DNA of 64,000 nucleotides from Patescibacteria group bacterium (GCA_024654575.1 JANLHG010000014.1:24745-88744), one strand, 5' to 3'. Counted from the first letter of the stretch, positions 2,873-61,446 are shown. Program-made: numbers and translations. Notes: generated by a model not told the origin, from the sequence alone.

Positions 2873-3622
2873 TTAATGAAAACTGCTATCTAAAGAAGAT
2901 TGAGTCTTTTCTGTTTCAAGTTGTTGCCTATTTTGTATTGATTGGTCTATATCTATTCCCGCTTGTCGTGCTTCGGTTCTAATTTGGTCTGCTTCTTTTG
3001 TAAAACCTTCTAACATTAATTTATCAGCTGCAGTGCGAGATTCTATACTAATTTGTATTTTAAGTGTTGTAGCTTTTGAATAGTCTTTATTTTTTATAGC
3101 TTCTATTGCTGCTATTTTGTTATTACCGATTTTCCCTATATTTATTCCTAAATCACGAGTAGCTTGAGCTTGTTTTTCTAGAATTGCTTTAATTTCCGGA
3201 TCTTTTTCTAATAATGCTTGTCTTTCTAAATTTTCTGCATTAAGTCGTTCGATTTTTATTTGATCATTTAATGCTTTTTGTAAGTTTATTGCTTCCGAAG
3301 GAGGGTCTATTTTTATAGTAAGTTTATCAATTTCTAGATTTGAAAAATCAACCAGTTTTGGATTTATAGTATAAAGCAAAAGCCAAGCGCTGAGAGTCAA
3401 AAGAAGTCCTAATATCGCGTCCCATATCCTTTTTTTACCGTCTAATTTCATAGCTGGTATCCCAGACAGCATATATTCTAACCCCCCCCAAACAATCATA
3501 AGAATAGCAAAAGCAATAGCTATACCAATGCTAATTTTAAATATTGCACTCAGATAGGTAGATAAATCTGTAACAATGTTGTCTTTTATGAAAGGTAATG
3601 GTGCTAAAAGTTGATAATCCAT
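2873..3622 (-). CDS. Hypothetical protein with two TM segments plus a C-terminal coiled-coil (possible VirB2/pilin-like or VirB8/VirB10-like component)
   Basis: Two hydrophobic helices (ISIGIAIAFAILMIVWGG and ILGLLLTLSAWLLLY) followed by a charged heptad-rich tail. Operon context only; no motif-level identification. Confidence 0.35.
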   Translation of the reverse strand: MDYQLLAPLPFIKDNIVTDLSTYLSAIFKISIGIAIAFAILMIVWGGLEYMLSGIPAMKLDGKKRIWDAILGLLLTLSAWLLLYTINPKLVDFSNLEIDKLTIKIDPPSEAINLQKALNDQIKIERLNAENLERQALLEKDPEIKAILEKQAQATRDLGINIGKIGNNKIAAIEAIKNKDYSKATTLKIQISIESRTAADKLMLEGFTKEADQIRTEARQAGIDIDQSIQNRQQLETEKTQSSLDSSFH

Positions 3623-4333: not shown

Positions 4334-4639
4334 TCATAGTTTCTCCTCAGCTCTAACACTCATCCATGTGTATATCACGTCTCCAGACCAAGCGGGTAAG
4401 GCGTCGAGTAATGGAATTTCTTCTATTAGGAATGATAAACAGAGAGCCAAAATTCTATTTTTACTAAGTTTTACTCCTCGCATTAAAAAATAAAGCACCA
4501 AAGACATACCCATTACAATATCAATAAGGCGATTAGGTACAAGAAAAGGTGTAAGAAATACTTGTATTGTATCAACAGTAGCTGTGGCCCCAAGTACTAA
4601 CCCCCATTCCACATTTCCTATTTTTGATTTATTAGCCAT
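4334..4639 (-). CDS. Small integral membrane protein
   Basis: 101 aa with about 3 hydrophobic helices. Its start overlaps the VirB4-like stop by 8 nt. Confidence 0.35.
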   Translation of the reverse strand: MANKSKIGNVEWGLVLGATATVDTIQVFLTPFLVPNRLIDIVMGMSLVLYFLMRGVKLSKNRILALCLSFLIEEIPLLDALPAWSGDVIYTWMSVRAEEKL

Positions 4640-6446
4640 TTGATGCTAGTTCTTGTTTAGCTTTTTTAATTTCCAAAATTTGAGAAGGATTGGTAGTAAT
4701 GATTTGGTCCTCAGTGTAAGAAGCGATAATTTTAATAGCCACGTGTTTTAATCCCACGAAGAATATCCCCTCACCTATATCTGATTCAAGGAGTAGATAC
4801 TTTTCTTCGTCTGTCAGATTAAATGTTCTTTGGATGTTATCTATTGATGACGGTGACTGTTTTAGAAGAATTTGAATTGAAGAGTTGGTTATAATAGGTA
4901 ATCCGTAAGGTGATTTTAGAAAATCATCTACGTCCTGTGTGATGGTTGCAAGTCCTAGGTAATATTTTCTCCCTCTTTTCGCTAATCCAAGGAGGAAAGA
5001 TGCTGTATCTTCAGATTTCATCATCCACCACGCTTCATCAATCACTAAAAGGCGTTTTTTAAGATTTTTACGAATAGCATTCCAAATATAATGAGTAACA
5101 ATATACATCGCCACTGGTTTTAATTCGTCTTCCATATCTCGTAATGAAAAAACAATAAATTTTTTATTGATATCAACATTAGTTGGACGGTTAATGAAGC
5201 CAGACCAAGTTCCTTTTGTATATTTTGAAAGTCGTTGCACAAGCGATTCGGCACCTTCCATTCCAGCTAGTACCAATTCAAAATCCGACATAAGTGGCGG
5301 TTCTACATTAGCAAAATCTGATTCAGGAGAGATATCTTTAAGTGCGTATGTTTCAGTTATGGCTCTATCAATAATTGCATCTTCTTCTTGTGAAAGTCCT
5401 CCGAGCATAATTCTAAAAAGTCCCACAAGGTTGATTATGTTTGAACGAAGGACATCGGCCGATGATTCATCTTCTCTAGCTACAGGCAAATCAAACGGAT
5501 TGATATGATGTTCGGAATTAAGAGAAATATTAAAATATTTTCCTCCAGTGGCCTCTGCCATATACTCGTATTCTTTTTCTGGGTCAATAACAATAACTTC
5601 TGTATCAAACATAAGAGTTCGTAGAATTTCTAGTTTAGTAGCATATGATTTTCCAGCTCCAGCTTTGGCAAAAGTCACAGAATTGTAGTTTTCTAAAAGA
5701 AATCGGTCAAAAAGCACTAAACTTGAATTATGACGATTAATACCATATAAAATTCCCTTATCTGAAGTCAAGTCAAAAGAAACGAAAGGAAATATTGAAG
5801 ATAACGGCGATGAATTGAGTTTTGAGTGAACACTTAATTCATCTGTGGCTATAGGGAGGACACTTTTATATCCCTGTTCCTGTTGAAATAGAGCTGGTTT
5901 TAGATAGACAAGTTTTGCTTCAAGTATTGATTTAATTTCCGATTCAATTTTATCTAATTCCCCATCGCTATCTCCGTATAGAGTAATATAAACACCAACA
6001 TCAAAAATCTTTTCCTGCGCTTGCATAAGATTATCTCGCAAACTTTCAAGATCTCTGTATGCTGTGTCGAGCATTGGGTCTCTCACTAATCCCTTTTCTT
6101 CTCTCACATTAATCTGACTTTGTACTTCTGCCACCTTTTTCTGAAATTGACGAAGGACTTTTGCTGTTTCAACAGGATGAATAAAAATTGAAATATTAAA
6201 TACCTTATCTAAATTGATAATTGGAGCGAACCATGAATCGGAAAGATATCGTGGGTATGAGATAACGAAAAATGTTCTAGCTATTTTTTCTCCTAAATTT
6301 ATTTCTTTTGGTGTTATTTTAAGAGCAGATGGTGCAATAATATCTTTCAATTCCAAAACACCCGCCTCATATATTTCTTGAGGTAAAATAGAAGTTATTT
6401 GAGGTGCTTCTTCCTTTTTTCCAAAAATTTTATTTAAAAATGACAT
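4632..6446 (-). CDS. VirB4/TrbE/CagE-family type IV secretion ATPase (C-terminal ATPase portion)
   Basis: Walker A FAKAGAGKSYATK and the family-typical Walker B LLVIDEAWWMM (DEAW). Size and motif spacing fit VirB4. Confidence 0.75.
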   Translation of the reverse strand: MSFLNKIFGKKEEAPQITSILPQEIYEAGVLELKDIIAPSALKITPKEINLGEKIARTFFVISYPRYLSDSWFAPIINLDKVFNISIFIHPVETAKVLRQFQKKVAEVQSQINVREEKGLVRDPMLDTAYRDLESLRDNLMQAQEKIFDVGVYITLYGDSDGELDKIESEIKSILEAKLVYLKPALFQQEQGYKSVLPIATDELSVHSKLNSSPLSSIFPFVSFDLTSDKGILYGINRHNSSLVLFDRFLLENYNSVTFAKAGAGKSYATKLEILRTLMFDTEVIVIDPEKEYEYMAEATGGKYFNISLNSEHHINPFDLPVAREDESSADVLRSNIINLVGLFRIMLGGLSQEEDAIIDRAITETYALKDISPESDFANVEPPLMSDFELVLAGMEGAESLVQRLSKYTKGTWSGFINRPTNVDINKKFIVFSLRDMEDELKPVAMYIVTHYIWNAIRKNLKKRLLVIDEAWWMMKSEDTASFLLGLAKRGRKYYLGLATITQDVDDFLKSPYGLPIITNSSIQILLKQSPSSIDNIQRTFNLTDEEKYLLLESDIGEGIFFVGLKHVAIKIIASYTEDQIITTNPSQILEIKKAKQELASNG

Positions 6447-7101: not shown

Positions 7102-7545
7102 TTATACCTTATTTTTCTTAGACTCGTTGTACATTTCTTTTACTCCGGGTGTAGAAACTTCATTTATATCTAAACTCCACGTCAGATCTTTTAATTTGCT
7201 ATCTGAAAGTTTTGGTATGAAAACAGATGGTTGTGAGGCCTCGTCTTTTTTATGGACAATTTTTCTATCTTCCTTTTTCCATATGTATAATTTATTTCCC
7301 AGTGCATATTTTACTGCTGATTCAACAATTGAAATGAACGGTTTGCTATTTATTTTATAAAAAGCTAAGGCCAGTGAAAATCCAATCACTATCGCTATGA
7401 TAGGCAATGCAATGTAAATGTATAAAATAGCGTAAATTATATAAGATAGACCCGCTCCCCCAGCAAGATAAATGAACTGTTTTAGAGTCAATGGTCCGAA
7501 TATTTTATCTTCTATTTCTATAAATTGTGGTACTTGAAATTTCAT
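7102..7545 (-). CDS. Small two-TM membrane protein, VirB3/PrgI-like by position
   Basis: 147 aa with two adjacent TM helices (LAGGAGLSYIIYAILYIYIALPIIAIVIGFSLALAFY), located just upstream of the VirB4-like genes as VirB3-like proteins are in Gram-positive-type T4SS. Confidence 0.4.
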   Translation of the reverse strand: MKFQVPQFIEIEDKIFGPLTLKQFIYLAGGAGLSYIIYAILYIYIALPIIAIVIGFSLALAFYKINSKPFISIVESAVKYALGNKLYIWKKEDRKIVHKKDEASQPSVFIPKLSDSKLKDLTWSLDINEVSTPGVKEMYNESKKNKV

Positions 7546-7556
7546 AAATTAGATTA

Positions 7557-8126
7557 TTATATTTTATTAATAGGTTCACGATATGGGTCTACTTTGTACT
7601 CTTTTTTCGTTACAGGTGCAGCAAGTATGCTATCTATTTTTTTCAAATATGCAGGTCCTTCAACTTTATTAGGAGCAGGCAATTCATTTCTAGTATCAAT
7701 AATGGCTTCCACTTTCTTTTCTTCTTTTTTCACTTCAAATGATTCTTCTCTAGCCAAAACTGGATTTTCTATCTCATCAAGAATTTGTTCTTTGGAAATG
7801 GGTTCTTCAGAGTTATTATCTTGCATAAAATGACGAACTGATAATAATATTTTTTCATTTGCCTCTGATGCAATTTTTTCTGCGTCTGATCTAGATATTT
7901 CAAGCCTATTCTCAATATTTTTTATGTAATCATTTGGTTTTGTAATACCCAACATCAGTAATCTTGTTTCGCTATCTAATTCTCCAATTTGGTCTATATG
8001 TAAATTAAATTCTTTTCCAATTTCAATTAGATTTTCATACACTTTAGGTGAAGTGATCGCTTTTTGGAATTCTTCAGGCAGATTTTTTAATGTTGTTTTT
8101 GTATCCATATTTTTGTTTAATACCAT
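7557..8126 (-). CDS. Hypothetical cytoplasmic acidic protein
   Basis: 189 aa with no TM segment and no motif. Placed here by operon context only. Confidence 0.35.
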   Translation of the reverse strand: MVLNKNMDTKTTLKNLPEEFQKAITSPKVYENLIEIGKEFNLHIDQIGELDSETRLLMLGITKPNDYIKNIENRLEISRSDAEKIASEANEKILLSVRHFMQDNNSEEPISKEQILDEIENPVLAREESFEVKKEEKKVEAIIDTRNELPAPNKVEGPAYLKKIDSILAAPVTKKEYKVDPYREPINKI

Positions 8127-9940
8127 ATACCTCGTGCCCCTGGACTATTTACATAACCGTATGCACTGTGGCCGACAGGAATCAATGTCGCTAACGCTCG
8201 TCTATCTGCAAAAGCAAGGTCTTCCATATCTTTAACTTGAGATGTTTTAAGATGAGATACTACGATGGGGTTTGTAAAGTTAGGAGTTCCTAAACTAACA
8301 ATTTCTTTTCCGGTCATTTTTGAAATAATATTTTTTACTGTAGTTGAGTCACCGCTGCCGATAGCATTAATAAGTAATTGTCTTTTGGCATTTTTAATTG
8401 TAATTTTATCTGCTTCTGATCTTTCACCTTTTTCTATTTCATCTAATTCTCCTTTACCTAAATGCTGGGTGACTAATGGATTGGTAATTGTTTTGGTGTC
8501 TAGTTGTGCTTTTTCTTTAGTACTCATTTTATCTAGAGCATCTTTTACTGCAGTTGCGTTACCGGTAGCCATCGCCACTTTTAGATCTTTAACTCTGTCA
8601 ATGATGCGTTGTTTTGTGGCAACATCTTTTCCTTGCTTAACGCTATCAATTCTTGATTTTGAACTTCCAAATTTAGCACTAGCTAATGCTCCTGTGCTTA
8701 TTTGACGAAGAGATCGTCCGGCAACACTATTCCCAAATGATGTATTTTCAAGTGCTTTGTCTAATGAATGACCAACTCTACCAACCGTATTCCTTCCCAC
8801 AAATCCCTGACCCATTTTTCTTAATGATTGCCCCCACCCCTTTAGTGTACTTGCTCCCTGAACTCCTAGTTTATCAGCAATAATTAAACCAGCGATTAAG
8901 AAAATAATAACTATTAGAAAATTGAGAATAACCACCACCGAACTAGCTCCTGTTCCAGCTCCGCCTGAGAATGCTTGATTGAATGTAGGGCTGACATCAG
9001 ACCCGCCATTTAAAACCTTTTTGAAAGTCGGGTCACTTAAGATTCTTATACCTATGTAAGTGACTAAAAGATAGGCAGGTGCGAATATAGCTTGTTTATG
9101 AAGAGTACTCCACCATTGGTCAGCATAAGACTTTGTTCCCGGTAATACTCCGCTTACATAAGCTAGTGGAGAAAGAGCCATAAGAATAATGAGAACGACT
9201 ATGCGAATAGCAAAAAGAACTGCTGCGGCGAAAAATACGAAAGCAGCTACAAGCATTACGATTGAACCCATAATTGTGGTTGTAAAGATGTGTTTATTAT
9301 CAATACCAGTAGGTGCTCCTCCAGCGAGTTGAGTTGGTTGATTGTAATCTAAAGTGGTTTGGATCCATAGTTGTTGCATAAAGACATCTGAAAGACAGCC
9401 ATCAGCACATTCTTCAGCATTAGGTGTCATTGCATTGTAGAATTGTAGAGCTACTATGTTTGATGCATCAATAATTATCTTGGTGAAGAATAAACTGAAG
9501 TTTATAAGAAGTCCTGCAATGACAATATTGACCAACAGTTTTTTTGTGCCCAGTCCGTCAAGTCCTAAAATCATTGAAATAGCTTGATAGATGATAAGGA
9601 AAATGAAAAACATTGTGGCAAAATCCCGCACTGTTTTCCAAGCGAGAGTAATAGCTGGTATTTGTGCTACTAATGTGGAAATATTTAGTGTCCATTTGAG
9701 AGAATAATTTAGAAGAATACCAGCAATCCATAATACTTTACTAACAAGAGTCATAATGACATTTCCAATTATTCCAGAAGCATTTTCTATGGCACTTTTC
9801 CCGATATCACCTATAGTAAACCAATCACCAATTCCAGCGTAAGTAATTTGTGGAAAAATAATAGTATAATTGGCTACTAGAATAAAGAGAACTATGAAAA
9901 TGTATATTAGTATTTTTTTCATCGTATTAATAGCTGACAT
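8117..9940 (-). CDS. VirB6/TrbL-like polytopic membrane protein with a repeated hydrophilic C-terminal tail
   Basis: Signal peptide followed by at least 6 TM helices over about 380 aa, then a hydrophilic tail. The tail contains two copies of a roughly 45-aa repeat (...TAVKDALDKMSTKEKAQLDTKTITNPLVTQHL / ...TTVKNIISKMTGKEIVSLGTPNFTNPIVVSHL). Confidence 0.5.
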   Translation of the reverse strand: MSAINTMKKILIYIFIVLFILVANYTIIFPQITYAGIGDWFTIGDIGKSAIENASGIIGNVIMTLVSKVLWIAGILLNYSLKWTLNISTLVAQIPAITLAWKTVRDFATMFFIFLIIYQAISMILGLDGLGTKKLLVNIVIAGLLINFSLFFTKIIIDASNIVALQFYNAMTPNAEECADGCLSDVFMQQLWIQTTLDYNQPTQLAGGAPTGIDNKHIFTTTIMGSIVMLVAAFVFFAAAVLFAIRIVVLIILMALSPLAYVSGVLPGTKSYADQWWSTLHKQAIFAPAYLLVTYIGIRILSDPTFKKVLNGGSDVSPTFNQAFSGGAGTGASSVVVILNFLIVIIFLIAGLIIADKLGVQGASTLKGWGQSLRKMGQGFVGRNTVGRVGHSLDKALENTSFGNSVAGRSLRQISTGALASAKFGSSKSRIDSVKQGKDVATKQRIIDRVKDLKVAMATGNATAVKDALDKMSTKEKAQLDTKTITNPLVTQHLGKGELDEIEKGERSEADKITIKNAKRQLLINAIGSGDSTTVKNIISKMTGKEIVSLGTPNFTNPIVVSHLKTSQVKDMEDLAFADRRALATLIPVGHSAYGYVNSPGARGIWY

Positions 9941-15498: not shown

Positions 15499-16476
15499 TT
15501 GCTTTTGTTGATTATGATAGTTCCTTTTCAAGTTCAGGCAGGTTTTTTGTCTTTTGTTTCTGGTTTTTTTGGTAATACTAAAGTAGAAGCGGATACTACA
15601 AATGAGCCAAACTCTCAGAATATGGCTTTGCTTCACGCTGCTATAAATACAGATCCAAATCTTTCTAAAGGTACAAGTGAGATTGTTATTGTTGGAGGTA
15701 GTGCTCTTTTATCTGAAAATGGACCTCTAGGAACAACTGCTGACATACAGGAAGAACATATCAATACTCAAATTAGTGTTTACGTGGTCAGAGAAGGTGA
15801 TTCTTTAAGTAGAATCGCCCAACTTTTTAATGTGTCTGTTAATACTATTTTGTGGGCGAATGATTTACCTACAGGATCAAATATCCAACCAGGACAGACA
15901 TTGGTTATTCTTCCGGTCTCAGGTATTAAATATGCGGTTAAAAAAGGTGACACAATTGAGTCTATAGCTAAAAAATATAAAGCAGATGTTGACGACGTGT
16001 TAAGTTATAACGGTTTTGCTAAAAATACTCAGTTAGAAATAGGTAATGAATTGATTATTCCTGATGGCGAGATAGCTTCAGTTACCAAGAATGTAGTATC
16101 AAAAAAATCTAAAAGCAGTCTGCCTGGTTATTCAGGATATTATATGCGTCCGATTACTGGTGGGTATAGAACACAAGGAATTCATGGTTATAATGGCGTA
16201 GATCTTGCTGATTCAATTGGTACACCTGTTTTTGCAGCTGCAGATGGTATAGTCATTATAAGTAAATCAGGTGGTTGGAATGGTAGTTATGGAAGTTATA
16301 TAGTAATCTCACATCCGAATGTTACTCAAACACTGTATGCACACTTAAGCGGTAATATTGTGTCAGTTGGCGATTCTGTAAAGAAGGGTCAACTTATAGG
16401 ACTGGTAGGTTCAACAGGTCGTTCTACAGGTCCTCATGTTCACTTTGAAATTCGTGGAGCAGTTAATCCTTTTTAA
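15499..16476 (+). CDS. LysM-domain peptidoglycan M23 metalloendopeptidase
   Basis: Signal peptide, two LysM-like segments (EGDSLSRIAQLF..., KGDTIESIAKKY...), and an M23 core (GVDLADSIGTPVFAAADG ... HVHFEIR). Confidence 0.8.
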   Translation: MLLLIMIVPFQVQAGFLSFVSGFFGNTKVEADTTNEPNSQNMALLHAAINTDPNLSKGTSEIVIVGGSALLSENGPLGTTADIQEEHINTQISVYVVREGDSLSRIAQLFNVSVNTILWANDLPTGSNIQPGQTLVILPVSGIKYAVKKGDTIESIAKKYKADVDDVLSYNGFAKNTQLEIGNELIIPDGEIASVTKNVVSKKSKSSLPGYSGYYMRPITGGYRTQGIHGYNGVDLADSIGTPVFAAADGIVIISKSGGWNGSYGSYIVISHPNVTQTLYAHLSGNIVSVGDSVKKGQLIGLVGSTGRSTGPHVHFEIRGAVNPF

Positions 16477-17173
16477 TTTTTTTTCCTGACAATTCAATAG
16501 ATTTGATAACAAGAGTATCCATAGCATCTACAAAATATTCTGGAAGATTACAATTTTTTTTGAAGTAAGACAGCTCTGTACATCCAATTATGATTATATT
16601 ACATCCTTTTTCTTTTAATTCATCAGCTACTTTCATAAAATCTTTTATATCACCCTTCCCTTCTTTTTTTATTCCGTTGTAAATTATGTCCATTAAAACT
16701 TCTTGATTTTTTTCTGATGGGGTAATTGTTTCTATATTATATTTTTTACATTCATTTTCGTATATTTTTGAATTTATAGTTCCATCTGTGGCCATTATTC
16801 CTATCTTTTTTATTTCTGTGTAATTTTGTGTGGCATATTTTAGGCTTTCTTCTATCATATTTATTATTCGTATTTTTGTTTGGGATTGTATTTCATGATA
16901 AAAAAAATGAGCAGTATTGCATGGTATAGCTACTATTTCTACACCTATTTTTTCTAATATCTCCAAATCTTTTTTAATTTGTGAAATAAATGGTTCATAT
17001 TCTTTTGATTCTATAGCTGTAGTTCTATCAGAAATACTACTATGATTTAGTATGACTAAGTCTAAATGTTCTTGATCCGATGAAGTATCTGTTTTTTCTA
17101 CTATTCTAGTAAAAAAATCAGCAGTTGCTTCTGGTCCCATCCCCCCAATTATTCCTAATTTATAGTTAGACAT
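16463..17173 (-). CDS. Asp/Glu-racemase-family protein (aspartate racemase-like)
   Basis: The N-terminus LGIIGGMGPEATADFF and a second Cys-region (IIGCTELS) are typical of aspartate racemase. Confidence 0.7.
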   Translation of the reverse strand: MSNYKLGIIGGMGPEATADFFTRIVEKTDTSSDQEHLDLVILNHSSISDRTTAIESKEYEPFISQIKKDLEILEKIGVEIVAIPCNTAHFFYHEIQSQTKIRIINMIEESLKYATQNYTEIKKIGIMATDGTINSKIYENECKKYNIETITPSEKNQEVLMDIIYNGIKKEGKGDIKDFMKVADELKEKGCNIIIIGCTELSYFKKNCNLPEYFVDAMDTLVIKSIELSGKKIKKD

Positions 17174-18377
17174 AGTATTTTTTATATTTAATAAAGTGAC
17201 TCAAATGTGATTTTAATAAGTATAACAATCTTTTTACTTTATAATCATTTTTATAAAATAATGGATTTATAAAATCTTTTTTTTGTATAAGTAATTTCAT
17301 TTCGTTTTTTAATTCTTGAGGTTTTACATACTTGAATGCTACTTTTATCGGAACAACAAGCCATAATTTTTTGTTTTTAACTACGGTAAACTCAAGCTCT
17401 TTGTTGTAAATGTAGTCATCTACTAGATATTTTGCTAAATTATACCCTGCTCCAGTAACATAAAAATTACTTCTACCCTGTCTTAAATTTATTTCAAATA
17501 TTTTATATTTACCATCTCTGGTGTCGTATTTAATATCAAAGTTTGAAAAGCCATAGAAATCTATGTCTTCTAAAAACTTTTTTATTTTGTTTATAAGTTC
17601 ATCATTAATTTCATTTATGATGACGGCGTGATTTCCTAATCCGTGAGGTGTGTGTTCTTCAAGGAGAACATGTCCTAACGCCATAAGTTTAACTTTTTTA
17701 TTTTTATCAGAATAACAAGTCATAACATGCATATATGTATCATCTCCGGGTATGTAATCTTGTATTATTAATGTATCTTTATATCCAGCGTTATAAATTT
17801 CTTTCAAAACTTTATTTAGTAGTTCATGATTGTTTAATTTGTAAACTTTCTTTTGGCTAGTAAAAGAATTGTTCCAGTATTCAACGCTGTTAGATGGTTT
17901 TACAATGACAGGAAAGTTAAATGGTAAAGTGAAATTTTCTCCCATTTCTTTTTTATGTATAAAAGTTTTTGGGTAATCAATATTGTGTTTTTGACATATT
18001 TCATAAAATTTCTCTTTTTTTATGAGTTTTTCCATTATTTCATAGTCAATATATGGAATAATAAAATTATTAGGAAGTTTATATTTATTTTTACTTATTA
18101 AACTAACATAATTATCTCCACAACCAATTAGTATAAGTTTTTTATTTTTATTTTTTAATGATATTTCGTTCATTATTCTCATAAAACAATCATCTTCGTC
18201 TATCGTCTCTATTGCTGTGAAGTCTATGATTTTGCTGTTATAGCTAGGTCCGTTGCTATATTTTCCTATTACCATTGATTTTATTGAGTATTCTTCATGA
18301 AACGCTCTAGCCATACTGTAAGTATTGATATCACTACCAAGTAATACTGGTATAAAATTTAATTTTTTTATTATCAT
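17166..18377 (-). CDS. ATP-grasp-fold carboxylate-amine ligase (D-aspartate-ligase-like by context)
   Basis: 403 aa with an ATP-grasp-like C-terminal ExN motif (FEINLRQGRS). It overlaps both neighbours by 4-8 nt, indicating translational coupling. Confidence 0.5.
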   Translation of the reverse strand: MIIKKLNFIPVLLGSDINTYSMARAFHEEYSIKSMVIGKYSNGPSYNSKIIDFTAIETIDEDDCFMRIMNEISLKNKNKKLILIGCGDNYVSLISKNKYKLPNNFIIPYIDYEIMEKLIKKEKFYEICQKHNIDYPKTFIHKKEMGENFTLPFNFPVIVKPSNSVEYWNNSFTSQKKVYKLNNHELLNKVLKEIYNAGYKDTLIIQDYIPGDDTYMHVMTCYSDKNKKVKLMALGHVLLEEHTPHGLGNHAVIINEINDELINKIKKFLEDIDFYGFSNFDIKYDTRDGKYKIFEINLRQGRSNFYVTGAGYNLAKYLVDDYIYNKELEFTVVKNKKLWLVVPIKVAFKYVKPQELKNEMKLLIQKKDFINPLFYKNDYKVKRLLYLLKSHLSHFIKYKKYYV

Positions 18378-20218
18378 CGTTTTATGAAAAATTCCTCATA
18401 CCACACCAAAAATGTGAATATTGCCCATATTTTTCTTGAGTTATTTTTTCCCTTTCGGTGTTCATCTAACAATCTCAGTATTTTTGTTTTATTAAAGTAT
18501 TTTTCAGCAATTTCAGATAGAAAGTGTTTTTTTATAATATTATAGTATTTATCTTCCCGCAACCATTCAACTAATGGTAAAGGGAAAGCCATTTTTTTTC
18601 TATCAGCACTAATTTTGTTAATTTCTTTACCAGCTGCTTCTCGTAAAGCTAATTTGGTATTTTTTTTGTTTACTTTATATTCAACAGGTATCGTGCTTGC
18701 AAGTTTAAATATTTCAATATCTAAAAATGGCACTCTTAGTTCTAATGAATTTGCCATACTCATTTTATCGGCCTTTAACAATATTTCTTGAACCATCCAA
18801 AAATGAATATCTATATATTGCATTTTGGTTATGTCGTCATTATTTTTTACTTTATCGTAAAAAGGTTTAACATAATCTTGAGGAGATTTTGATTTATACT
18901 TATTTTTTAGTACGTTTCCTCTTTCTTTTTCATTGAATAGATTACTATTTCCAATATACCTTTCTTCAATTGTTTTACTTCCCCTTATTATAAAATTTTT
19001 TCCTTTGAAATAAGGTAATGGTTTAACTAGTAAAGCTAGAAATTTTCTTATTGATAAAGGCAATTTTTGGTAATTTTTTAAAGACAATGGTTCTTGGTAG
19101 ACATTGTAACCACCAAACATTTCGTCAGCTCCCTCTCCAGATAAAACAACTTTTACATCTTTTGAAGCTAATTGAGAAACGAAATATAATAAATTTGCAC
19201 TTGGGTTCGCCAAGGGCTCATCAAGATGGTATTGCACGTTTCCAACATTAGAAAAATATTCTTCAGAAGATACTATTTTTGAATAATTTTGGACACTTAT
19301 TTCTTGAGCAAATTTTTTTGCATCATTTGATTCATCGTATAATTTATCATCAAAACCTATTGAATATGTCCGTATTTTTTCTGATTTTGATAGTTCGTAT
19401 GTTACATAACTAGAATCTACTCCACTTGATAAAAAAGTTCCAACCTCCACATCACTTATTTTGTGAGCAGTTACTGATTCGGTAACGGAATTTGAAATAT
19501 GGTCTACAAAATAATCCATATTTTTATCATTTTCTATATTAAATTCTGGTGTAAAATATCGAATTATTTTTAATTCCCCACCTGATGGTGTGTTTCTGTA
19601 TTCAAAATAATGGGCGGGTGGTAATTTATAAACATTTTTGAAAAAAGTCTCATTTCCAGGAACGCAACTAAATGTCAAATAATCTGGTAGTTTTTCTTCA
19701 AATAATTCTTTTTTGAAATCAGGATGAGATAAAAAACCCTTTATTTCTGAGCCAAACATAAAAGTTGAGCCCATTTTTGTGTAATAAAAAGGTTTAATTC
19801 CGAAGAAATCTCTAGCTCCAAATATTTTTTTTTCTTTGTTATCCCAAATTACAAAAGAAAACATTCCCCTTAACTTGCAGAGTAAATTTACACCATACTC
19901 TTCATATCCATGAATTAACACTTCAGAGTCACTTTCTGTGCTAAAAACATGACCTTTTTTGATTAATTCTTGTTTTAAAAATCTATAATTGTATATTTCT
20001 CCGTTAAAAACCAAAACCTTTGTTTTGTCTTCATTAAACATTGGCTGAGAGCCGTTTTTTAAATCAATTATACTTAATCTTCTAAACCCTAGAGATATTT
20101 TATCGTCAATATAAGTATCTTCTGAATCTGGTCCCCTATGAGAAATAGCCTTCAACATGTTTGATAGCACGTTTTTATTATCTTTAGTAGTTCCTGTGTA
20201 TCCTACAAAGCCACACAT
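18374..20218 (-). CDS. asnB: Asparagine synthetase (glutamine-hydrolysing), class II amidotransferase
   Basis: MCGFVGY N-terminal nucleophile start. The ORF-track start MHM is a TTG read as Met two codons upstream, and the true start is the ATG giving Met-Cys. It also has the SGGVDSS PP-loop. Confidence 0.8.
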   Translation of the reverse strand: MCGFVGYTGTTKDNKNVLSNMLKAISHRGPDSEDTYIDDKISLGFRRLSIIDLKNGSQPMFNEDKTKVLVFNGEIYNYRFLKQELIKKGHVFSTESDSEVLIHGYEEYGVNLLCKLRGMFSFVIWDNKEKKIFGARDFFGIKPFYYTKMGSTFMFGSEIKGFLSHPDFKKELFEEKLPDYLTFSCVPGNETFFKNVYKLPPAHYFEYRNTPSGGELKIIRYFTPEFNIENDKNMDYFVDHISNSVTESVTAHKISDVEVGTFLSSGVDSSYVTYELSKSEKIRTYSIGFDDKLYDESNDAKKFAQEISVQNYSKIVSSEEYFSNVGNVQYHLDEPLANPSANLLYFVSQLASKDVKVVLSGEGADEMFGGYNVYQEPLSLKNYQKLPLSIRKFLALLVKPLPYFKGKNFIIRGSKTIEERYIGNSNLFNEKERGNVLKNKYKSKSPQDYVKPFYDKVKNNDDITKMQYIDIHFWMVQEILLKADKMSMANSLELRVPFLDIEIFKLASTIPVEYKVNKKNTKLALREAAGKEINKISADRKKMAFPLPLVEWLREDKYYNIIKKHFLSEIAEKYFNKTKILRLLDEHRKGKNNSRKIWAIFTFLVWYEEFFIKR

Positions 20219-20239
20219 ATGCAATGGAGTATAGCATAT

Positions 20240-20752
20240 TTACACATTAAACCCGATTGACTTTGAAGACTTTGATGGTGTTGCAAGTAATTGTTTAATT
20301 GCATCAAAGACGATACGGAATTGTTGGTCATATTTTTTCTCTAATTTTTCAATCTGTTCTCGAAGTTCTTTGTTTGAAGCGATAAGTTCTCGTATTTTGG
20401 TAAAAGTTCTAATAATTTGAATGTTTACTTGAATTGCGCGTTCGCTGTTTAAAACACTAGAAAGCATAGCGATTCCTTGCTCTGTAAAAGCATAAGGTAA
20501 TTTTCTTAATCCCATTTTATCTGAATTGGAAGTCACAAAATGTGACTTCCAATTCTTAAATTCTTTTAACGACAATTGAAACATAAAGTCAGTTGGAAAT
20601 CTCGCAATGTTTCTTTTTACCGCTTGATTAAGTTTTTTGGTTTCAACTCCGTAAAGTTTAGATAAATCTCTATCAAGCATTACTTTTTTGCCTTTTATAA
20701 AAAAGATTTTATTTTCTATTCTATCTTGAGGTAGTAATACTAGAGATTTCAT
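20240..20752 (-). CDS. ORF6N/KilA-N-like DNA-binding domain protein
   Basis: KGKKVMLDRDLSKLYGVETKKLNQAVKRNIARFPTDFMFQL matches the ORF6N signature. Confidence 0.6.
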   Translation of the reverse strand: MKSLVLLPQDRIENKIFFIKGKKVMLDRDLSKLYGVETKKLNQAVKRNIARFPTDFMFQLSLKEFKNWKSHFVTSNSDKMGLRKLPYAFTEQGIAMLSSVLNSERAIQVNIQIIRTFTKIRELIASNKELREQIEKLEKKYDQQFRIVFDAIKQLLATPSKSSKSIGFNV

Positions 20753-52599: not shown

Positions 52600-52675
52600 G
52601 GTGGCTATAGTGTAATGGTTAGCACTAGAGTTTGTGGAACTCTCAGTTCGGGTTCAAATCCCGATAGTCACCCCA
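52600..52675 (+). tRNA. tRNA-His (anticodon GTG) with encoded G-1 and CCA
   Basis: Extra 5' G pairing with discriminator C, anticodon stem AGAGT/ACTCT with loop TTGTGGA, T-arm TCGGG-TTCAAAT-CCCGA, 3' CCA in the genome. Confidence 0.85.
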
Positions 52676-54262
52676 TTCAAGAATAAGTTGAGCGAAAGCC
52701 ATATTTCGTGCCTCAACAGTAAGGTTTTTGTCCAGTTCCAGCCGTTTATACTTTTTTTCTAACTCAGGATACGCTTTTTCTATTGGAACAAACCATTCGT
52801 TTGGTGTTATATGGATTTTTTTGTCTTTCACTAAAAAGTTCTGACCAAGTGCTGAAAATATTTCTCTTTTTTTATTAAGATCTCCAAGAAGAAACTCTTT
52901 GCGTGCATAACAAGAGAAATTAAATGTTTTTTCAGTAAGTTCCAGCCATTTTTCTGCCCTACTCTCTGTTTCTCTTAAGTTTGTTTTGAGTTTCACTATT
53001 TTTGTTGTGAGCTCATCTCTCTCTTTTATGAATGTTTCATCATCAATAAGTTCTCGATATCTCATTTTGGTGAGTGTATCTAGCTCTTTTTGAGTATTTA
53101 CAAGTGTTCTATGTTGGTTTTCATATATCTTAGTCCGTTCCTCAATTTCTTTATCGTTGTTTCGGTTGAGTATTTCAAGAGCCCACTCTTGAAACTTTGG
53201 CATGATAGTATATCGTTCAAGTTCAATATCAATCTGATCTTCAAGTTCTTTTAGTGTCATTGGATTTTTCTGATCGCATTTCACCTCTTTTTTCTTTCTG
53301 GTGCAGTTGTAATATACATAAGTTTTTAGTTTTCCAGTACTTTTTATTATTTTTGTTTTTTCGCTCGCTGTATACATTGAATTACATATTTTGCATCGCA
53401 TAAGTCCTGTATAAGCAAAATTATGTGTCTGTGCTCGTGGTTTACCGTTTCTACCGAGAATGATTTGCACTCGATCATATTCTTCAAGAGTGATCATTGA
53501 TTTATGGTTGCCTTTATAAACTCTTCCAGCCCACATAAACATTCCTGTATAGAAGATATTAGTGAATAATTTATAAATAACACTACTTGCAATTTCAACA
53601 CCTCCATCTCGTTTTGTTTTTGGTGTGCGAAAGCCCCACTCTTTATTTGCGATTTCTCGTATTTGTGGAGGTGTGTAATTTCCAGTAAGCATTATGTTCC
53701 ACATTTTTCGGACCAGATGAAATCGTTCTTTGTCTTCAATGATTGTATGTTCGAGTTTATCATTCAAATATCCTAAAGGAGCACGAGAGGGAAGCCATCC
53801 TCGATCTGCTTTTCCTTCCATACCTCGTTTACTGTTTTTTCGTAGGTCTATAATGAACTGATTTGCCATTCCGCTTTCGACATTAAATAAAAGAACATTG
53901 TCATCAGGTAGATACTGACGATCTATGCTTTGTATACATTTCAAAGCACCCTGTTGAAGCATCCAGCTTAATGTTCCACTATCAATAGGGTTTCGTGATA
54001 GACGATTGATTTGCCAGCATAGAATACCTTGAGCCTCTCCTTTTTCAATTCGTTCAAGCATATTGGTGAAGACGGGGCGACAATATGGTTTCTTTGCAGT
54101 TTTTGCTTCAGTAAGTATTTCTTTAATTGAAATGTTTAGATTGTTTGCTAGATCTTTGAGGCGACTTATTTGGTCCTCAATTGATTGGACCTGTCTATCC
54201 TCACTCTCTGATGATTTGCGAGCGTAGAGAAAATATGTAATTTTGTTAGTTTCGTTTTTCAT
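52643..54262 (-). CDS. Large serine recombinase (integrase)
   Basis: N-terminal resolvase catalytic domain (YARKSSESEDRQVQSIEDQ with the Ser nucleophile, and RLSR), a recombinase domain, and a Cys-rich zinc ribbon (CKICNS...CTRKKK..C). Start set to the ATG at 54262. Its last 11 codons overlap the 3' half of tRNA-His. Confidence 0.8.
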   Translation of the reverse strand: MKNETNKITYFLYARKSSESEDRQVQSIEDQISRLKDLANNLNISIKEILTEAKTAKKPYCRPVFTNMLERIEKGEAQGILCWQINRLSRNPIDSGTLSWMLQQGALKCIQSIDRQYLPDDNVLLFNVESGMANQFIIDLRKNSKRGMEGKADRGWLPSRAPLGYLNDKLEHTIIEDKERFHLVRKMWNIMLTGNYTPPQIREIANKEWGFRTPKTKRDGGVEIASSVIYKLFTNIFYTGMFMWAGRVYKGNHKSMITLEEYDRVQIILGRNGKPRAQTHNFAYTGLMRCKICNSMYTASEKTKIIKSTGKLKTYVYYNCTRKKKEVKCDQKNPMTLKELEDQIDIELERYTIMPKFQEWALEILNRNNDKEIEERTKIYENQHRTLVNTQKELDTLTKMRYRELIDDETFIKERDELTTKIVKLKTNLRETESRAEKWLELTEKTFNFSCYARKEFLLGDLNKKREIFSALGQNFLVKDKKIHITPNEWFVPIEKAYPELEKKYKRLELDKNLTVEARNMAFAQLILEWGDYRDLNPN

Positions 54263-54406
54263 ATAAAAACCCCAAAGGGACGGTCTGGTACCCCAACTCA
54301 CTTGCTCCGAAGAGTAGCCTCATTGGCAAACCGCCCCTTTAGGGCAACGAGGCAATAAAAAGCTCCTCGGATTAATGCTGTGAAATTAGGGTACTTATAT
54401 ATCATA

Positions 54407-55030
54407 TCATTTTTTCTTAATATTATCTAATCGGTTTTCCCAATTTATCAACATCATTCCATAATTCTGTTCAAATTTTTCATTCAACCTCATTAGTCGC
54501 TTGTATTTTCTTGTGGGCTTACCTTTGTAGTAATATCGCTTGATTTCCTTTTCTGCTTTTTCTAAGTCTAGAATTGATATTCCATTCCATCTATATTTTC
54601 CTCCCACCATTTGCTTAGAATAAGCTATGTTTCCACAGTGTCGGCAACCGAACCATTTACCGATGCTGAAAATCACACCCACTCGTCGTCCACAATATAT
54701 TTCATTTTTATAAAGAGGACAGATAAACCAGTATCTTTTCCCCCCATATCGGCATGGAGTAGTAGTAAGTTCAATTTTATAATCTATATCATCTTTTCCC
54801 CCAGAATATTTGTTTGTGTTTGTATATCTCAAATTTATATAAGCTCTTTCTTCGGAGGTGTCACAGCCATCTTTAATTACAGAGAAACTTATACTGTTTT
54901 TATTTTTGCTGTATCCATAGGTCCAAGTGATACCACCACACTTATAACTGCAATCTTTATCCAGATAACCATATTTTTTGAGCCAGAAGATACTTAAGCT
55001 GTTAGATTGTTCTGCGATTGGTTTAGACAT
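54407..55030 (-). CDS. Hypothetical Cys-rich (zinc-ribbon-like) protein
   Basis: CSYKCGG ... CRYGGKRYWFICP ... CGRRVG...CRHCGN cysteine pairs. No family recognised. Confidence 0.35.
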   Translation of the reverse strand: MSKPIAEQSNSLSIFWLKKYGYLDKDCSYKCGGITWTYGYSKNKNSISFSVIKDGCDTSEERAYINLRYTNTNKYSGGKDDIDYKIELTTTPCRYGGKRYWFICPLYKNEIYCGRRVGVIFSIGKWFGCRHCGNIAYSKQMVGGKYRWNGISILDLEKAEKEIKRYYYKGKPTRKYKRLMRLNEKFEQNYGMMLINWENRLDNIKKK

Positions 55031-55318
55031 TTTATTTTTGCAAACTAGCCGAAATCATTAGAGATTAATAGCTATTTTTTGGTATTTTATCATCATTTTA
55101 TGTTGAAAATAAAGGGTTTTTTTACTTATTCAATTATTTCATGTTTTTTCTGTTATTTTACGAAACAAATCCGTTTTTATTCTTTTGAAATATCTACATC
55201 TACGACTGCCAAGTTTGGCGTTCTCACGATTTGTCTCAATTTGTTTTTGTGATGTCTCAGTCATAGCATTTATACTGTTATTCATACTGTTTAGCAGTAT
55301 GAGATAGTTTTTATAATG

Positions 55319-57502
55319 TTAAAAATCTATTTCCTCCATAGTAATTTCATTGCTTTCTTGATCAGTGTTTTTTACCTCACCCTCTATTTCACTATTCTTT
55401 GCTTCACCAGAAAGTTGATACAGGGAGGAGGGGAAAATCATCATCTTGCGTTTATCGTTCGGGTCTTGTTCCTGTACGATAAGCCCAGCCGTTTCAAGCA
55501 TCGGGAGTATCTGCTGGCGAAGTTGATGACCATCCAACATCCTTCCATAAACTGCAAAGTGTTTTTCAAGAACCTCTTGGCGTGAAAGACCGAGCTTGCC
55601 TGTAAGTTCTTCAAATGTTTCATTTCTGCTGTTATTTTTTGCTTCCCACGCTGGCAAAATAACTTCTTTGTAGAGATTATAGATGTAGGGTGGTAGGTTT
55701 AATTCTTGGCTCACAGATATTTTATCCCAGAGCTTGAAGGCATCGTTTACATCATTTTTGTTCGCCGTAATCGTGGATCCGTCTCGTTCACGCCACCAGA
55801 CATTGAGCATAGCGAACGACTTGATAAGTGATAACAAGCGTTTGATATCTCGCTGATGTCGTGGTTTGAGTGTTTTATTTTTGTTTAAAAACCTCTCGCT
55901 AATTTTTTCTGGCGATACGATGTTTATTTCCTTAATGTTCTCTAGTTTGATAGCACGAATACGCTCTTTGAGTAATGCTCGGTCTGGGTTTTCTTCAAGC
56001 CAACTTACAAAACTCTCGCTGTCCGCCTCTTTGCGTATTATTGCACTAATACCTTGTTGTATTTTATCTTGACTAACCTCTGGAGAAAGAAGCAGAAATC
56101 TTGTTGCTTCCTGTTCATCTATACGAAGCCCAGCTGTGCAGAAAATAACTGACGGATATCCACGCAGAAGAATGTTTTTTGTTTTAGTTCCATTTTTCTG
56201 TGTTTTGTCTGTAATTTTAATTGCAATCTCTTTTTTGTCGTGAGAGAGAAGGGGTCGTAGTCGTGCCAGAAGTTCATTATGTGGCTGGTCCAGAAAAATA
56301 AGTATCTTGTGTGAAAGGTCAACTAAGTAGCTGTTTTTATCTTTGTCATATTGTCCAACATCGTGGAAGAACGCCGTAGGGGAGCAGTAAGCAATCTCCA
56401 TCACATCGTCTTGTGGAAACAAGCGTGCAATTTCTGTGGGGATATAACTTTTACCAGTAGATGATGGTGCATTGTAGCTGATATTGAATTGTGAGCTTTC
56501 GGTATAGGCAGAAAGCTCGCACAGGAATGTCGCCAGCTTATTCTCGGCATCGTATTTGATGGTAAGTCCGAGCGTATCAAGGAGCTGTGTTGAACTCATG
56601 GGAGCGAATTGTGTGATATCAATTTTCTCTGGATACGGCTTTGCGTATTTGCCGAACAAATCGTCTACAGATCCGTTGAGTTTTATAAAATAATCCGTGA
56701 TGTCTCCAGCTTCACCAACCTCTTCTGGCAGAGTAATGATGTGTATCTCACACCCAATACTTTCCAATATTTTTGCTACTCGTTCAGACCCTTTTCTTCC
56801 AGCATCATCTTTATCAAAACAGATATATATTTTATTATCTTTTCTTATCTTTTCTACCCACTCGTCTTTGAATGTCATAGCTCCGTGAGTAGAGGTTATT
56901 GTAGGTACATTTTTGGAAAGAAGAAGTAATCTGTCTAGTTCACCTTCGCAGATTACAAGTGAAATGCTAGGTTTTGTTAGGTTATCCCAGTCATAGAGCT
57001 GTGCCTCGGCTCCTTTAGGATATGTTATTTTATCGTTACCAAAAACAGGATCCATTCTTAATTTGAAAAACGAATAATTGCCGTATATATCCTTGATTGG
57101 GATAGTAATCCACGACTTGCGATAAAATTGTCCATAGCCAAGCTTATAGGCGTCTATGACGGCATCAGTGAGCCCTCGCTTGCGTAGATACTCTCGTATA
57201 TGTGGTGGTAATTCTTGATGACATTTTTCCACTAATTCTGTATTAAAAGTGTTTATCTTGCGTGATTTTGGTTCTGTATCGCCGAAGTATTTTGCTAATG
57301 TGATGAGATTACCTTTTTCACCACATTTTTTACAATCATATTGTCCCGTATCGATACTAAAATATAAATGTGCTTCGTTGCCTTTGCTGTCCCTATCGCA
57401 ATCATTGAAAAAGCATTTGACGATAAGTTCTTTGCCACTCTCACGAAAGGGGATACCTTTCCCGATTAGATATTCTTTAATTGTAATATTTGTTAGGTTC
57501 AT
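55319..57502 (-). CDS. Phage/plasmid P4-like primase-helicase (CHC2 zinc-binding + TOPRIM primase + P-loop NTPase)
   Basis: CHC2-like CFFNDCDRDSKGNEAHLYFSIDTGQYDCKKCGE, TOPRIM (LVICEGELD ... DKDDAGRKG), and Walker A APSSTGKS in the C-terminal half. Confidence 0.65.
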   Translation of the reverse strand: MNLTNITIKEYLIGKGIPFRESGKELIVKCFFNDCDRDSKGNEAHLYFSIDTGQYDCKKCGEKGNLITLAKYFGDTEPKSRKINTFNTELVEKCHQELPPHIREYLRKRGLTDAVIDAYKLGYGQFYRKSWITIPIKDIYGNYSFFKLRMDPVFGNDKITYPKGAEAQLYDWDNLTKPSISLVICEGELDRLLLLSKNVPTITSTHGAMTFKDEWVEKIRKDNKIYICFDKDDAGRKGSERVAKILESIGCEIHIITLPEEVGEAGDITDYFIKLNGSVDDLFGKYAKPYPEKIDITQFAPMSSTQLLDTLGLTIKYDAENKLATFLCELSAYTESSQFNISYNAPSSTGKSYIPTEIARLFPQDDVMEIAYCSPTAFFHDVGQYDKDKNSYLVDLSHKILIFLDQPHNELLARLRPLLSHDKKEIAIKITDKTQKNGTKTKNILLRGYPSVIFCTAGLRIDEQEATRFLLLSPEVSQDKIQQGISAIIRKEADSESFVSWLEENPDRALLKERIRAIKLENIKEINIVSPEKISERFLNKNKTLKPRHQRDIKRLLSLIKSFAMLNVWWRERDGSTITANKNDVNDAFKLWDKISVSQELNLPPYIYNLYKEVILPAWEAKNNSRNETFEELTGKLGLSRQEVLEKHFAVYGRMLDGHQLRQQILPMLETAGLIVQEQDPNDKRKMMIFPSSLYQLSGEAKNSEIEGEVKNTDQESNEITMEEIDF

Positions 57503-57729
57503 ATATTTGTAATTCTTTTTTGTAATAATGATAATGTTTCTTGTCTATGTTTTTGAATTAACTCATACTCTTTCTCAGTCATGGGCTTATAGACGACAGA
57601 CATCAACTGCAAGAGTTTAACGCCTTTCTCATAGGCATCCTCTCGGCTGATTTTCATTCCGAACTCGCTTTTATAGAGAGCTTGAAACTTCAAAATGTCT
57701 TCGTCTAAAATGATCATGGCTATTTTCAA
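57499..57729 (-). CDS. Hypothetical small protein
   Basis: 76-aa helical protein whose start overlaps the primase stop by 4 nt. Confidence 0.3.
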   Translation of the reverse strand: MKIAMIILDEDILKFQALYKSEFGMKISREDAYEKGVKLLQLMSVVYKPMTEKEYELIQKHRQETLSLLQKRITNI

Positions 57730-58022: not shown

Positions 58023-58142
58023 ATAATTTTGTTAATTTAATTTGTTAAAACGACCTAATAGATTTTTTGAAAAACAAAAAACCATACTAGTTGCAGTATG
58101 GACTTTAAGAGAATTCGTATGAGAATTTTGGACTAAACTGGA

Positions 58143-59217: not shown

Positions 59218-59277
59218 TGTAATTGTAATTTATTCTAACTTTACTCTTTTTTACATTTTTTTCAAGCACGAAAAAAC

Positions 59278-59302
59278 AAAGCATGAGTATGCTTTTTTTT
59301 AA
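59278..59302 (-). terminator. Rho-independent terminator downstream of the XRE gene
   Basis: AAGCAT-GAGT-ATGCTT hairpin flanked by A-run and T-run. Confidence 0.5.
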
Positions 59303-59311
59303 GATAAAATC

Positions 59312-61441: not shown

Positions 61442-61446
61442 TGCTA

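Follow-up and report, generated by a model that had tools for sequence, protein, structure and literature searches.

A cluster of three overlapping genes in the genome of a Patescibacteria group bacterium raises the question of whether a member of this group decorates its peptidoglycan in the manner of lactic acid bacteria, or whether the genes serve some other chemistry. The cluster, called the cassette below, lies in a stretch of 64,000 nucleotides (GCA_024654575.1, contig JANLHG010000014.1, positions 24745-88744), which was analysed at its full length and is referred to as the window; coordinates are counted from its first nucleotide. The cassette encodes a glutamine-dependent amidotransferase of the AsnB type, an ATP-grasp carboxylate-amine ligase and an aspartate-type racemase. 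It is probably an acquired peptidoglycan side-chain unit, equivalent to the RacD, AslA/Aslfm and AsnH enzymes of lactic acid bacteria. The initial annotation had read this combination as a candidate D-aspartate (D-Asp) side-chain pathway, a proposal largely supported by the family identity of the proteins, by their Lactobacillaceae orthologues and by the linkage of the ligase family to MurE.

Organization of the cassette

The genes of the cassette, those at its two boundaries and the MurE gene of the window are the following:

16463..17173, minus strand: pyridoxal phosphate-independent aspartate-type racemase, 236 amino acids, TIGR00035
17166..18377, minus strand: ATP-grasp carboxylate-amine ligase of the D-aspartate ligase (Asl) family, 403 amino acids
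18374..20218, minus strand: asnB/asnH-like glutamine-dependent amidotransferase, 614 amino acids from the ATG at 20218, Pfam and TIGR01536
15499..16476, plus strand: resident M23/LysM peptidoglycan endopeptidase, the right-hand cassette boundary, outside the transferred unit
20240..20752, minus strand: resident ORF6N-domain gene, the left-hand cassette boundary, Pfam ORF6N at 117 bits
39940..41214, minus strand: resident MurE of the Patescibacteria type, 424 amino acids, TIGR01085

The three overlapping minus-strand genes of the initial annotation are confirmed as open reading frames (ORFs) of 236, 403 and 616 amino acids. The stop codon of asnB and the start codon of the ligase gene share the 4-nucleotide overlap ATGA, and the ligase/racemase junction, ATGTCTAA, is an overlap of 8 nucleotides in which the ligase stop falls within the racemase start. 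The longest ORF for asnB in the ORF listing of the window (18374..20224, 616 amino acids) begins with TTG. The ATG at 20218, from which the predicted N-terminus reads MCGF, is almost certainly the real start, and the resulting 614-amino-acid product is identical to NCBI MCR4334405.1. The ligase and the racemase likewise have exact matches among NCBI entries labelled 'Patescibacteria group bacterium'.

The cassette is embedded in a long, packed minus-strand run of genes for PNPase, a 289-amino-acid ORF, a DksA-like protein, ComM, the ORF6N protein, the amidotransferase, the ligase and the racemase. The ORF6N stop codon lies 21 nucleotides before the asnB ATG, the spacer between comM and the ORF6N gene is 2 nucleotides, and the M23/LysM gene is convergent with the racemase gene, with an overlap of 14 nucleotides. 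A promoter and terminator scan of the cassette found no private signal, the counts being at or below the expectation from shuffled sequence. The ORF6N gene, with comM on one side and asnB on the other, encodes a KilAC/antirepressor-like DNA-binding domain.

The racemase

The racemase scores 130 bits against Pfam Asp_Glu_race and 203 bits against the NCBIfam aspartate racemase model TIGR00035 asp_race (cut-off 93), and it stays below the cut-off of the models of the glutamate racemase MurI, with 48 bits for TIGR00067 (146.65) and 39 bits for NF002035 (328). Its top relative in the PDB is the aspartate racemase of Pyrococcus horikoshii, 1JFL (E=4e-45, about 50% identity over 220 residues), and the best glutamate racemase in the same search reaches only E=3e-6. 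Both catalytic cysteines are kept, in the motifs PCNTAH and GCTE, which align with Cys82 and Cys194 of the P. horikoshii enzyme; the structure of its C82A mutant (2DX7) marks the position of the first cysteine in the alignment. The equivalents of P. horikoshii R48 and K164, residues that we take to contact the substrate carboxylates, are conserved as well. Judged by its sequence, the protein is of the aspartate-racemase type and is not MurI, in agreement with the initial annotation. It is 34% identical to RacD of Lactobacillus curvatus.

The racemase also passes the model of the cysteate racemase CuyB, NF052483, with 199.7 bits (cut-off 190). The racemase of the donor-like locus L004 scores 197.7 bits on the same model. 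Since the characterised RacD of L. curvatus itself reaches 185 bits, the match is uninformative, and an identity as a cysteate racemase was dropped because the model does not discriminate. NF052483 may over-call cysteate racemases among aspartate racemases.

The ATP-grasp ligase and its family

The hidden Markov model libraries return only weak, sub-threshold ATP-grasp matches for the ligase, and no Pfam or NCBIfam model in the library scans names its family. No relative was found in the PDB by sequence, either with the single query or with a profile of 36 family sequences, so that the nearest clade among solved enzymes was judged by fold alone. The AlphaFold model (predicted local distance difference test, pLDDT, 88.4; predicted template modelling score, pTM, 0.87) has an ATP-grasp fold. 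A Foldseek search with this model gave 473 matches at E<=0.001, and the top 50 listed are all ATP-grasp enzymes; the best of them, at 10-18% identity, are PylC, L-amino-acid ligases, PurK, carbamoyl-phosphate synthetase and biotin carboxylase. An alignment of 36 family members, three of them from Lactobacillaceae, has twenty invariant positions. Among these are K160, Q206, D281, N297 and R299 in the catalytic core of the ATP-grasp fold, the last two of which lie in the E-x-N-x-R region. The family is large, with more than 5000 word-sharing homologues and 401 clusters at E<=1e-30 among the 50%-identity representatives. Seven of the homologues (P0122, P0146, P0184, P0212, P0250, P0253 and P0259) are fusions of 627-1235 amino acids, in which the ligase domain is C-terminal or central.

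The family assignment relies on the Lactobacillaceae. Aligned over 98% of its length, the ligase of the window shares 41.0% identity with a protein of L. curvatus, 42.3% with one of L. crispatus and 38.4% with one of L. fermentum, at E values of 1e-110 to 1e-99. These homologues were found by tblastn of a plasmid collection (three records); elsewhere the genes are core chromosomal, on contigs of about 2 Mb. All three species presumably carry the D-Asp bridge. The L. crispatus gene stands directly downstream of asnB, and the window AsnB is 43% identical to this neighbouring AsnB; the L. fermentum gene stands alone. In L. curvatus the order is aspS, the racemase gene racD, a gene named 'carboxylate--amine ligase' and a bifunctional aspartate aminotransferase gene, which matches both the racD-aslA operon of Lactococcus lactis (PMC4155827) and the published scheme for L. 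curvatus (PMC13631041). Most lactobacilli have a D-Asp bridge (PMC4155827). The orthology claim thus rests on the Lactobacillaceae genes together with the automatic name given to them by JGI, 'D-aspartate ligase'. By this comparison, the ligase belongs to a family that includes the racD- and asnB-linked D-aspartate ligase orthologues of Lactobacillaceae, and it stands apart from the glutathione synthetase and biotin carboxylase clades, which had been named at the outset as the placements that would speak against a D-aspartate ligase.

Gene neighbourhoods in Firmicutes

An exact-peptide-word scan of genome contigs, which is not a census of Patescibacteria, recovered 12 loci, all of them from Firmicutes. 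The closest ligase homologues outside Patescibacteria share 59-68% identity with the window protein and are linked to MurE. MurE, FemAB or MurJ adjoins the ligase gene in 13 of the 14 distinct Firmicute places with flanking sequence, and MurE itself does so in 12 of the 14. The arrangements are the following:

MurJ, ligase, small ORF, MurE, FemAB: L001 (3.8-Mb genome)
asnB, ligase, racemase, MurE: L004/L005, L021/L022
asnB, ligase, racemase: L023
ligase, racemase, MurE: L007, L008, L009, L011
ligase, MurE: L006, L015
MurE, ligase: L010
ligase, racemase, asnB: L014

The ligase and racemase genes are adjacent in 14 of the Firmicute loci retrieved and in L. curvatus; asnB stands next to the ligase gene in L. 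crispatus and in four Firmicute-like loci that are independent of each other. The linked MurE proteins of Firmicutes (501-505 amino acids) give their top score, below the cut-off, on the L-lysine ligase model PRK14022, and they carry EDPG at the position of the DNPR motif of enzymes specific for diaminopimelate (DAP). The linkage to MurE, FemAB and MurJ provides strong evidence, of the genomic kind, for a role of the ligase family in modifying the stem peptide, and it argues against a role in small-molecule synthesis. To judge from the literature searched, neither the three-gene clustering nor the MurE linkage in Clostridia has been described before.

Three loci from metagenome-assembled genomes (MAGs) of Bacilli/Erysipelotrichaceae (L012, L013 and L017) have two diverged ligase paralogues, 48% and 39% identical to the window protein, flanking one racemase gene. 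The first paralogue is about 510 amino acids long, some 110 beyond the usual 400, when the translated tblastn match is extended to the next stop. Such pairs may build two-residue bridges or may differ in specificity.

The predicted pathway and its acceptor

The observed gene identities, family placement, gene context and evolutionary history allow a pathway to be proposed, every chemical step of which is predicted from homology and context. First, the racemase would convert L-Asp to D-Asp. Second, the ligase would activate the beta-carboxyl of D-Asp as a beta-aspartyl phosphate, as in the characterised enzymes, and would couple it to the cytoplasmic uridine diphosphate-N-acetylmuramic acid (UDP-MurNAc)-pentapeptide, at the amine on the side chain of the diamino acid in position 3. 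Third, the AsnB-type amidotransferase would amidate the free alpha-carboxyl in a glutamine-dependent reaction, giving D-isoasparagine (D-isoAsn). The alpha-amine of D-isoAsn could then serve as the transpeptidation acceptor, and the result would be an A4alpha-like cross-bridge of the diamino acid-D-Asp/D-isoAsn kind. Least certain in this scheme are which D-amino acid is attached and which residue accepts it; next comes the question whether AsnB acts on the precursor.

The acceptor at position 3 is presumably set by the resident MurE. This protein scores 332 bits on TIGR01085 (cut-off 257), and its alignments to the bacterial MurE sequences of the PDB that were shown start at about residue 90-134 of the target, which indicates that it has no N-terminal, UDP-binding domain 1. 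The DNPR/DDPR motif of the PDB enzymes aligns with VDPY. In the MurE of Escherichia coli and Mycobacterium tuberculosis, the arginine of DNPR binds the distal carboxylate of meso-diaminopimelate (mDAP). The 120 closest homologues of the resident MurE are Parcubacteria proteins of 411-467 amino acids, those named being from Kaiserbacteria, Uhrbacteria, Kuenenbacteria and Paceibacterota; VDPY is present in 118 of the 120, domain 1 is likewise missing in about 120 homologues, and the databases label this short clade 'DAP ligase'. The specificity residues had been proposed as a means to tell a lysine-type from a DAP-type enzyme; the DAP-binding arginine is absent, and no characterised lysine-type motif takes its place. 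To judge from the motif, VDPY is compatible with a non-DAP residue 3 and matches no characterised lysine-type motif.

The most serious competitor keeps the family and its role in the wall and changes the chemistry: the D-amino acid would be another one (D-Glu, D-Ser or a sulfonated analogue), or the acceptor would be a residue other than lysine, such as ornithine (Orn), mDAP or another diamino acid. The VDPY motif of the Patescibacteria MurE, found in place of DNPR or DNPA, fits such a variant, as do the passing score of the racemase on the CuyB model and the diverged ligase pairs of the Bacilli loci, which suggest sub-specialisation. The wall of L. fermentum, which carries a ligase homologue, is presumably of the Orn-D-Asp kind, in which case the acceptor can differ between members of the family. 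Against a different D-amino acid speaks the racemase itself, which has about half of its residues in common with the aspartate-specific P. horikoshii enzyme and keeps the equivalents of R48 and K164, assumed above to hold the substrate; the CuyB score loses its force when L. curvatus RacD comes close to the same cut-off, and pairing with AsnB is chemically reasonable if the D-amino acid is dicarboxylic. A departure from D-Asp or from a lysine acceptor is considered unlikely.

The amidotransferase

The amidotransferase with an MCGF start that the initial annotation had described is borne out by the reading from the ATG at 20218. The product has an N-terminal nucleophile cysteine, a class-II glutamine amidotransferase domain and an Asn_synthase domain, with 150 bits for GATase_7 and 281 bits for Asn_synthase in Pfam and 507 bits for TIGR01536 (cut-off 267). 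Gene context suggests that this enzyme may act on peptidoglycan-bound D-Asp, as AsnH does, rather than on free aspartate, and the AsnH-type reaction is favoured because asnB is coupled to the putative D-aspartate ligase gene.

It is conceivable that the racemase and the ligase alone act on the wall, and that AsnB supplies asparagine as a housekeeping enzyme of an auxotrophic small-genome cell, linked to the other two by chance or by co-transfer. The protein does pass TIGR01536, a generic equivalog model for asparagine synthase, and many ligase loci have no adjacent asnB. The coupling through ATGA, however, is kept in the related Patescibacteria loci L002 and L003, the order asnB-ligase is found again in L. 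crispatus and in the four independent Firmicute-like loci, and asnB came with the other two genes in the transfer and has been kept along with them. AsnH is moreover known to amidate the D-Asp bridge (PMC4155827). On balance, a housekeeping AsnB in this position is quite improbable.

A third possibility, raised in the initial annotation, is that the cassette makes a soluble D-amino-acid dipeptide or another small molecule unrelated to peptidoglycan, through an enzyme resembling PylC or the L-amino-acid ligases. The nearest solved folds are indeed those of PylC, a Lys-N-epsilon-D-Orn ligase, and of the L-amino-acid ligases BL00235 and RizA, and the family is unnamed in Pfam and NCBIfam; these structural matches, however, are only 11-14% identical, whereas the homologues at 59-68% identity almost always adjoin MurE, FemAB or MurJ. 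The Lactobacillaceae orthologues (38-42%) fit the known position of aslA beside racD. With both the linkage and the orthologues speaking for the wall, a small-molecule product is disfavoured and appears very unlikely.

Apparent horizontal acquisition and retention of the cassette

The cassette was apparently acquired horizontally from Clostridia-like Firmicutes into a Paceibacteria genome with a Taylorbacteria-like backbone, as suggested by sequence identity, phylogeny, base composition and synteny. The window proteins are 69-73% (AsnB), 65-68% (ligase) and 51-58% (racemase) identical to those of the Firmicute-like cassettes, and such identity across phyla is far above what is expected for housekeeping proteins. 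In a neighbour-joining tree, the window ligase pairs with that of L002 (82% identical) in all 200 of 200 bootstrap replicates. This pair groups with L021, L004 and L023 (122/200), the loci with the asnB-ligase-racemase order, inside a clade of Clostridia/Bacilli MAGs (143/200), and the Lactobacillaceae form a separate clade (200/200). The guanine-cytosine (GC) content of the cassette is 25-29%, against 33.5% for the window; the L002 cassette has 27%, against 34.8% in its flanks, and the donor-like L004 has 24-25% throughout.

The surroundings of the cassette belong to a conserved backbone. The order, with T4SS for type IV secretion system, is T4SS-KsgA-UvrD-M23/LysM, followed across a slot by (ORF6N-)ComM-DksA-like-x-PNPase(-NYN-S15-integrase), and it is kept in more distant Patescibacteria. 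In a Taylorbacteria-labelled relative that has no cassette, the slot holds a HamA-like gene and a TrmB regulator, and ORF6N and ComM are adjacent; in a cassette-less relative from JGI it holds TrmB and an NMT1-type ABC transporter. Because Patescibacteria that share the backbone carry unrelated genes at this place, the cassette can be said to sit in a variable slot. The slot between M23/LysM and (ORF6N-)ComM acts as an integration hotspot, with no integrase or repeats visible.

The cassette is intact in the window, L002 and L003, with identical junctions that include the 4-nucleotide ATGA overlap. In a third MAG (L025) the contig end preserves a racemase C-terminus, 70% identical, which abuts the M23 gene at the same junction. 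Between the window and L002/L003, the ratio of nonsynonymous to synonymous substitution rates (dN/dS) is 0.07 for asnB, 0.09 for the ligase gene and 0.17 for the racemase gene, compared with 0.04-0.19 for the resident neighbours, and dS is about 0.8-1.0 in the cassette and its flanks alike. At least two Patescibacteria genomes maintain the cassette under purifying selection. The equal dS and the low dN/dS together indicate that it was present in the common ancestor of the window and L002/L003 and has been kept by selection. The donor-like loci L004, L021 and L023 have intergenic gaps of 7-165 nucleotides where the Patescibacteria copy has overlaps, which suggests compaction after the transfer.

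That a co-occurring Firmicute contributed the cassette through faulty assembly or binning, an error of the kind probably seen in a Saccharibacteria homologue (P0055) with a purely Firmicute-like arrangement on a 4.8-kb contig, is extremely improbable, since here typical Patescibacteria genes flank the cassette on both sides with no intergenic space on a 183-kb contig, the same junctions are found again in assemblies made independently (two ENA samples for L002 and L003, another MAG for L025) and dS is equal in the cassette and its flanks.

The homologue P0055 belongs to locus L024 (GCA_050258965.1, labelled 'Candidatus Saccharibacteria'), where the order ligase-x-MurE(506 amino acids)-FemAB is near the arrangement of L001. 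It is the only other ligase homologue labelled as belonging to the candidate phyla radiation (CPR). As a sign of a wider spread among Patescibacteria it was rejected, given the Firmicute-like context on a short contig.

Points that weigh against the proposed side-chain unit

Several observations count against the interpretation of the cassette as a D-Asp/D-isoAsn unit. The link from the window ligase to the characterised enzymes, Aslfm of Enterococcus faecium and AslA of L. lactis, runs via uncharacterised Lactobacillaceae orthologues, and within the subclade of Clostridia and Patescibacteria the enzymatic roles are predictions from sequence and gene context. The racemase family also holds enzymes of other or broad specificity, and the window protein passes the cut-off for cysteate racemase; AsnB enzymes likewise produce free asparagine. 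The resident MurE is atypical, lacking domain 1 and carrying VDPY for DNPR/DNPA, so that lysine at position 3 is not identified by motif, and the Lys-type-like MurE of the donor did not travel with the cassette. Finally, the exact sister group of the window ligase has a moderate bootstrap of 61-72%.

Other features of the window

The initial annotation had pointed to the MurE gene and the M23/LysM gene near the cassette. Both are present as described, and both turn out to be ordinary resident genes outside the cassette system. The M23/LysM protein consists of Pfam Peptidase_M23 and two LysM domains; its closest homologues are all from Patescibacteria (Taylorbacteria, Lloydbacteria and Paceibacterota), and its gene holds the same backbone position in relatives without the cassette. 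The idea that either gene co-evolved with the cassette was rejected, as both are standard Patescibacteria genes and the M23 gene is found at the same position where the cassette is lacking.

The segment 1605..12495 on the minus strand is a type IV secretion-like cluster of the Gram-positive type, in which several ORFs have no family match. The same T4SS-like cluster precedes KsgA-UvrD-M23 in related Patescibacteria. Its recognised members are:

2873..3622, minus strand: T4SS pilin
4632..6446, minus strand: TraG/VirB4-like P-loop ATPase
7102..7545, minus strand: PrgI
8117..9940, minus strand: TrbL/VirB6

At the other end of the window, in 52601..64000, the GC content climbs from about 33% to 41-43%. 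This segment probably represents a mobile element or prophage that has integrated, with the following features:

52601..52672: transfer RNA gene, abutting the large serine recombinase
52643..54301, minus strand: large serine recombinase
55319..57502, minus strand: primase-like protein
59642..61441, plus strand: DNA adenine methyltransferase

Implications for Patescibacteria cell walls

The envelope chemistry of Patescibacteria is almost unstudied because few of these bacteria have been cultured, and a literature search for Patescibacteria or CPR together with D-aspartate, aspartate racemase or an interpeptide bridge returned nothing relevant. From the locus, one Patescibacteria lineage is predicted to carry D-Asp/D-isoAsn as a side chain at stem residue 3. 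The locus also suggests that a wall chemotype, as predicted here, can cross phyla as a compact unit of three genes. It further draws attention to the Patescibacteria-wide short MurE, annotated as a DAP ligase without evidence, and to a D-aspartate ligase family that is large, has no Pfam or NCBIfam coverage and is tightly linked to MurE in Clostridia.

A bolder and rather doubtful extension is that an episymbiotic Patescibacteria lineage took over the D-Asp/D-isoAsn cassette of a Clostridia-like Firmicute and thereby altered its own wall chemotype; the donor would plausibly have been its host or another gut bacterium living close to it. If this were true, it would be the first transfer of a wall chemotype into CPR, and the short Patescibacteria MurE would install a residue resembling lysine or ornithine. 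The symbiont, with a host-like wall, could resist the endopeptidases of the host or of competitors, lysozyme and cationic peptides, or it could use host-derived precursors.

Comparison with known systems

Lactic acid bacteria are already known to use the pathway, and what is new here is its probable occurrence in Patescibacteria and the apparent horizontal acquisition of the cassette. The racD-aslA operon and the amidation by AsnH are described in two reviews (PMC4155827, PMC13631041), which summarise Veiga 2006, Veiga 2009 and Bellais 2006. The cassette comprises the same three enzyme types as racD-aslA and asnH of L. lactis and Aslfm of E. faecium, and the adjacency of racemase and ligase is shared. 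The two differ in that here the three genes are joined in one translationally coupled unit, asnB-ligase-racemase, and in that the host belongs to Patescibacteria rather than to Gram-positive bacteria, with a resident MurE that is not a recognised lysine-type enzyme. The window ligase is connected to the L. lactis and E. faecium system by the aslA orthologues of Lactobacillaceae (38-42%) and not by the sequences of Aslfm and AslA themselves. A pair of Aslfm and an AsnH homologue has also been invoked for the beta-Asp/isoAsn bridge of Bifidobacterium adolescentis (PMC10829024).

The Clostridia-like clusters L004 (GCA_964638835.1), L021 and L023 (GCA_964663395.1) have the gene order and orientation of the cassette and a low GC content. 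Two of the three are directly followed by a MurE of 501-502 amino acids, which is missing from the Patescibacteria copy. The best structural match of the ligase is PylC, the L-lysine-N-epsilon-(3R)-methyl-D-ornithine ligase (PDB 4FFL, Foldseek E=2e-16), an ATP-grasp enzyme that, like the predicted ligase, joins the carboxylate of a D-amino acid to the epsilon-amine of lysine. PylC differs in that it uses free lysine, in pyrrolysine biosynthesis, and at about 12% identity it is undetectable by sequence and is not a member of the family.

The amidation of peptidoglycan precursors by AsnB-type enzymes has its own precedents, two of which are AsnB of Bacillus subtilis and LtsA of Corynebacterium. 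AsnB1 of Lactiplantibacillus plantarum is likewise an AsnB-type amidotransferase of a precursor carboxyl (PMC4155827). The substrate of these three enzymes is the epsilon-carboxyl of mDAP, whereas the asnB gene of the window is coupled to the gene of a putative D-aspartate ligase.

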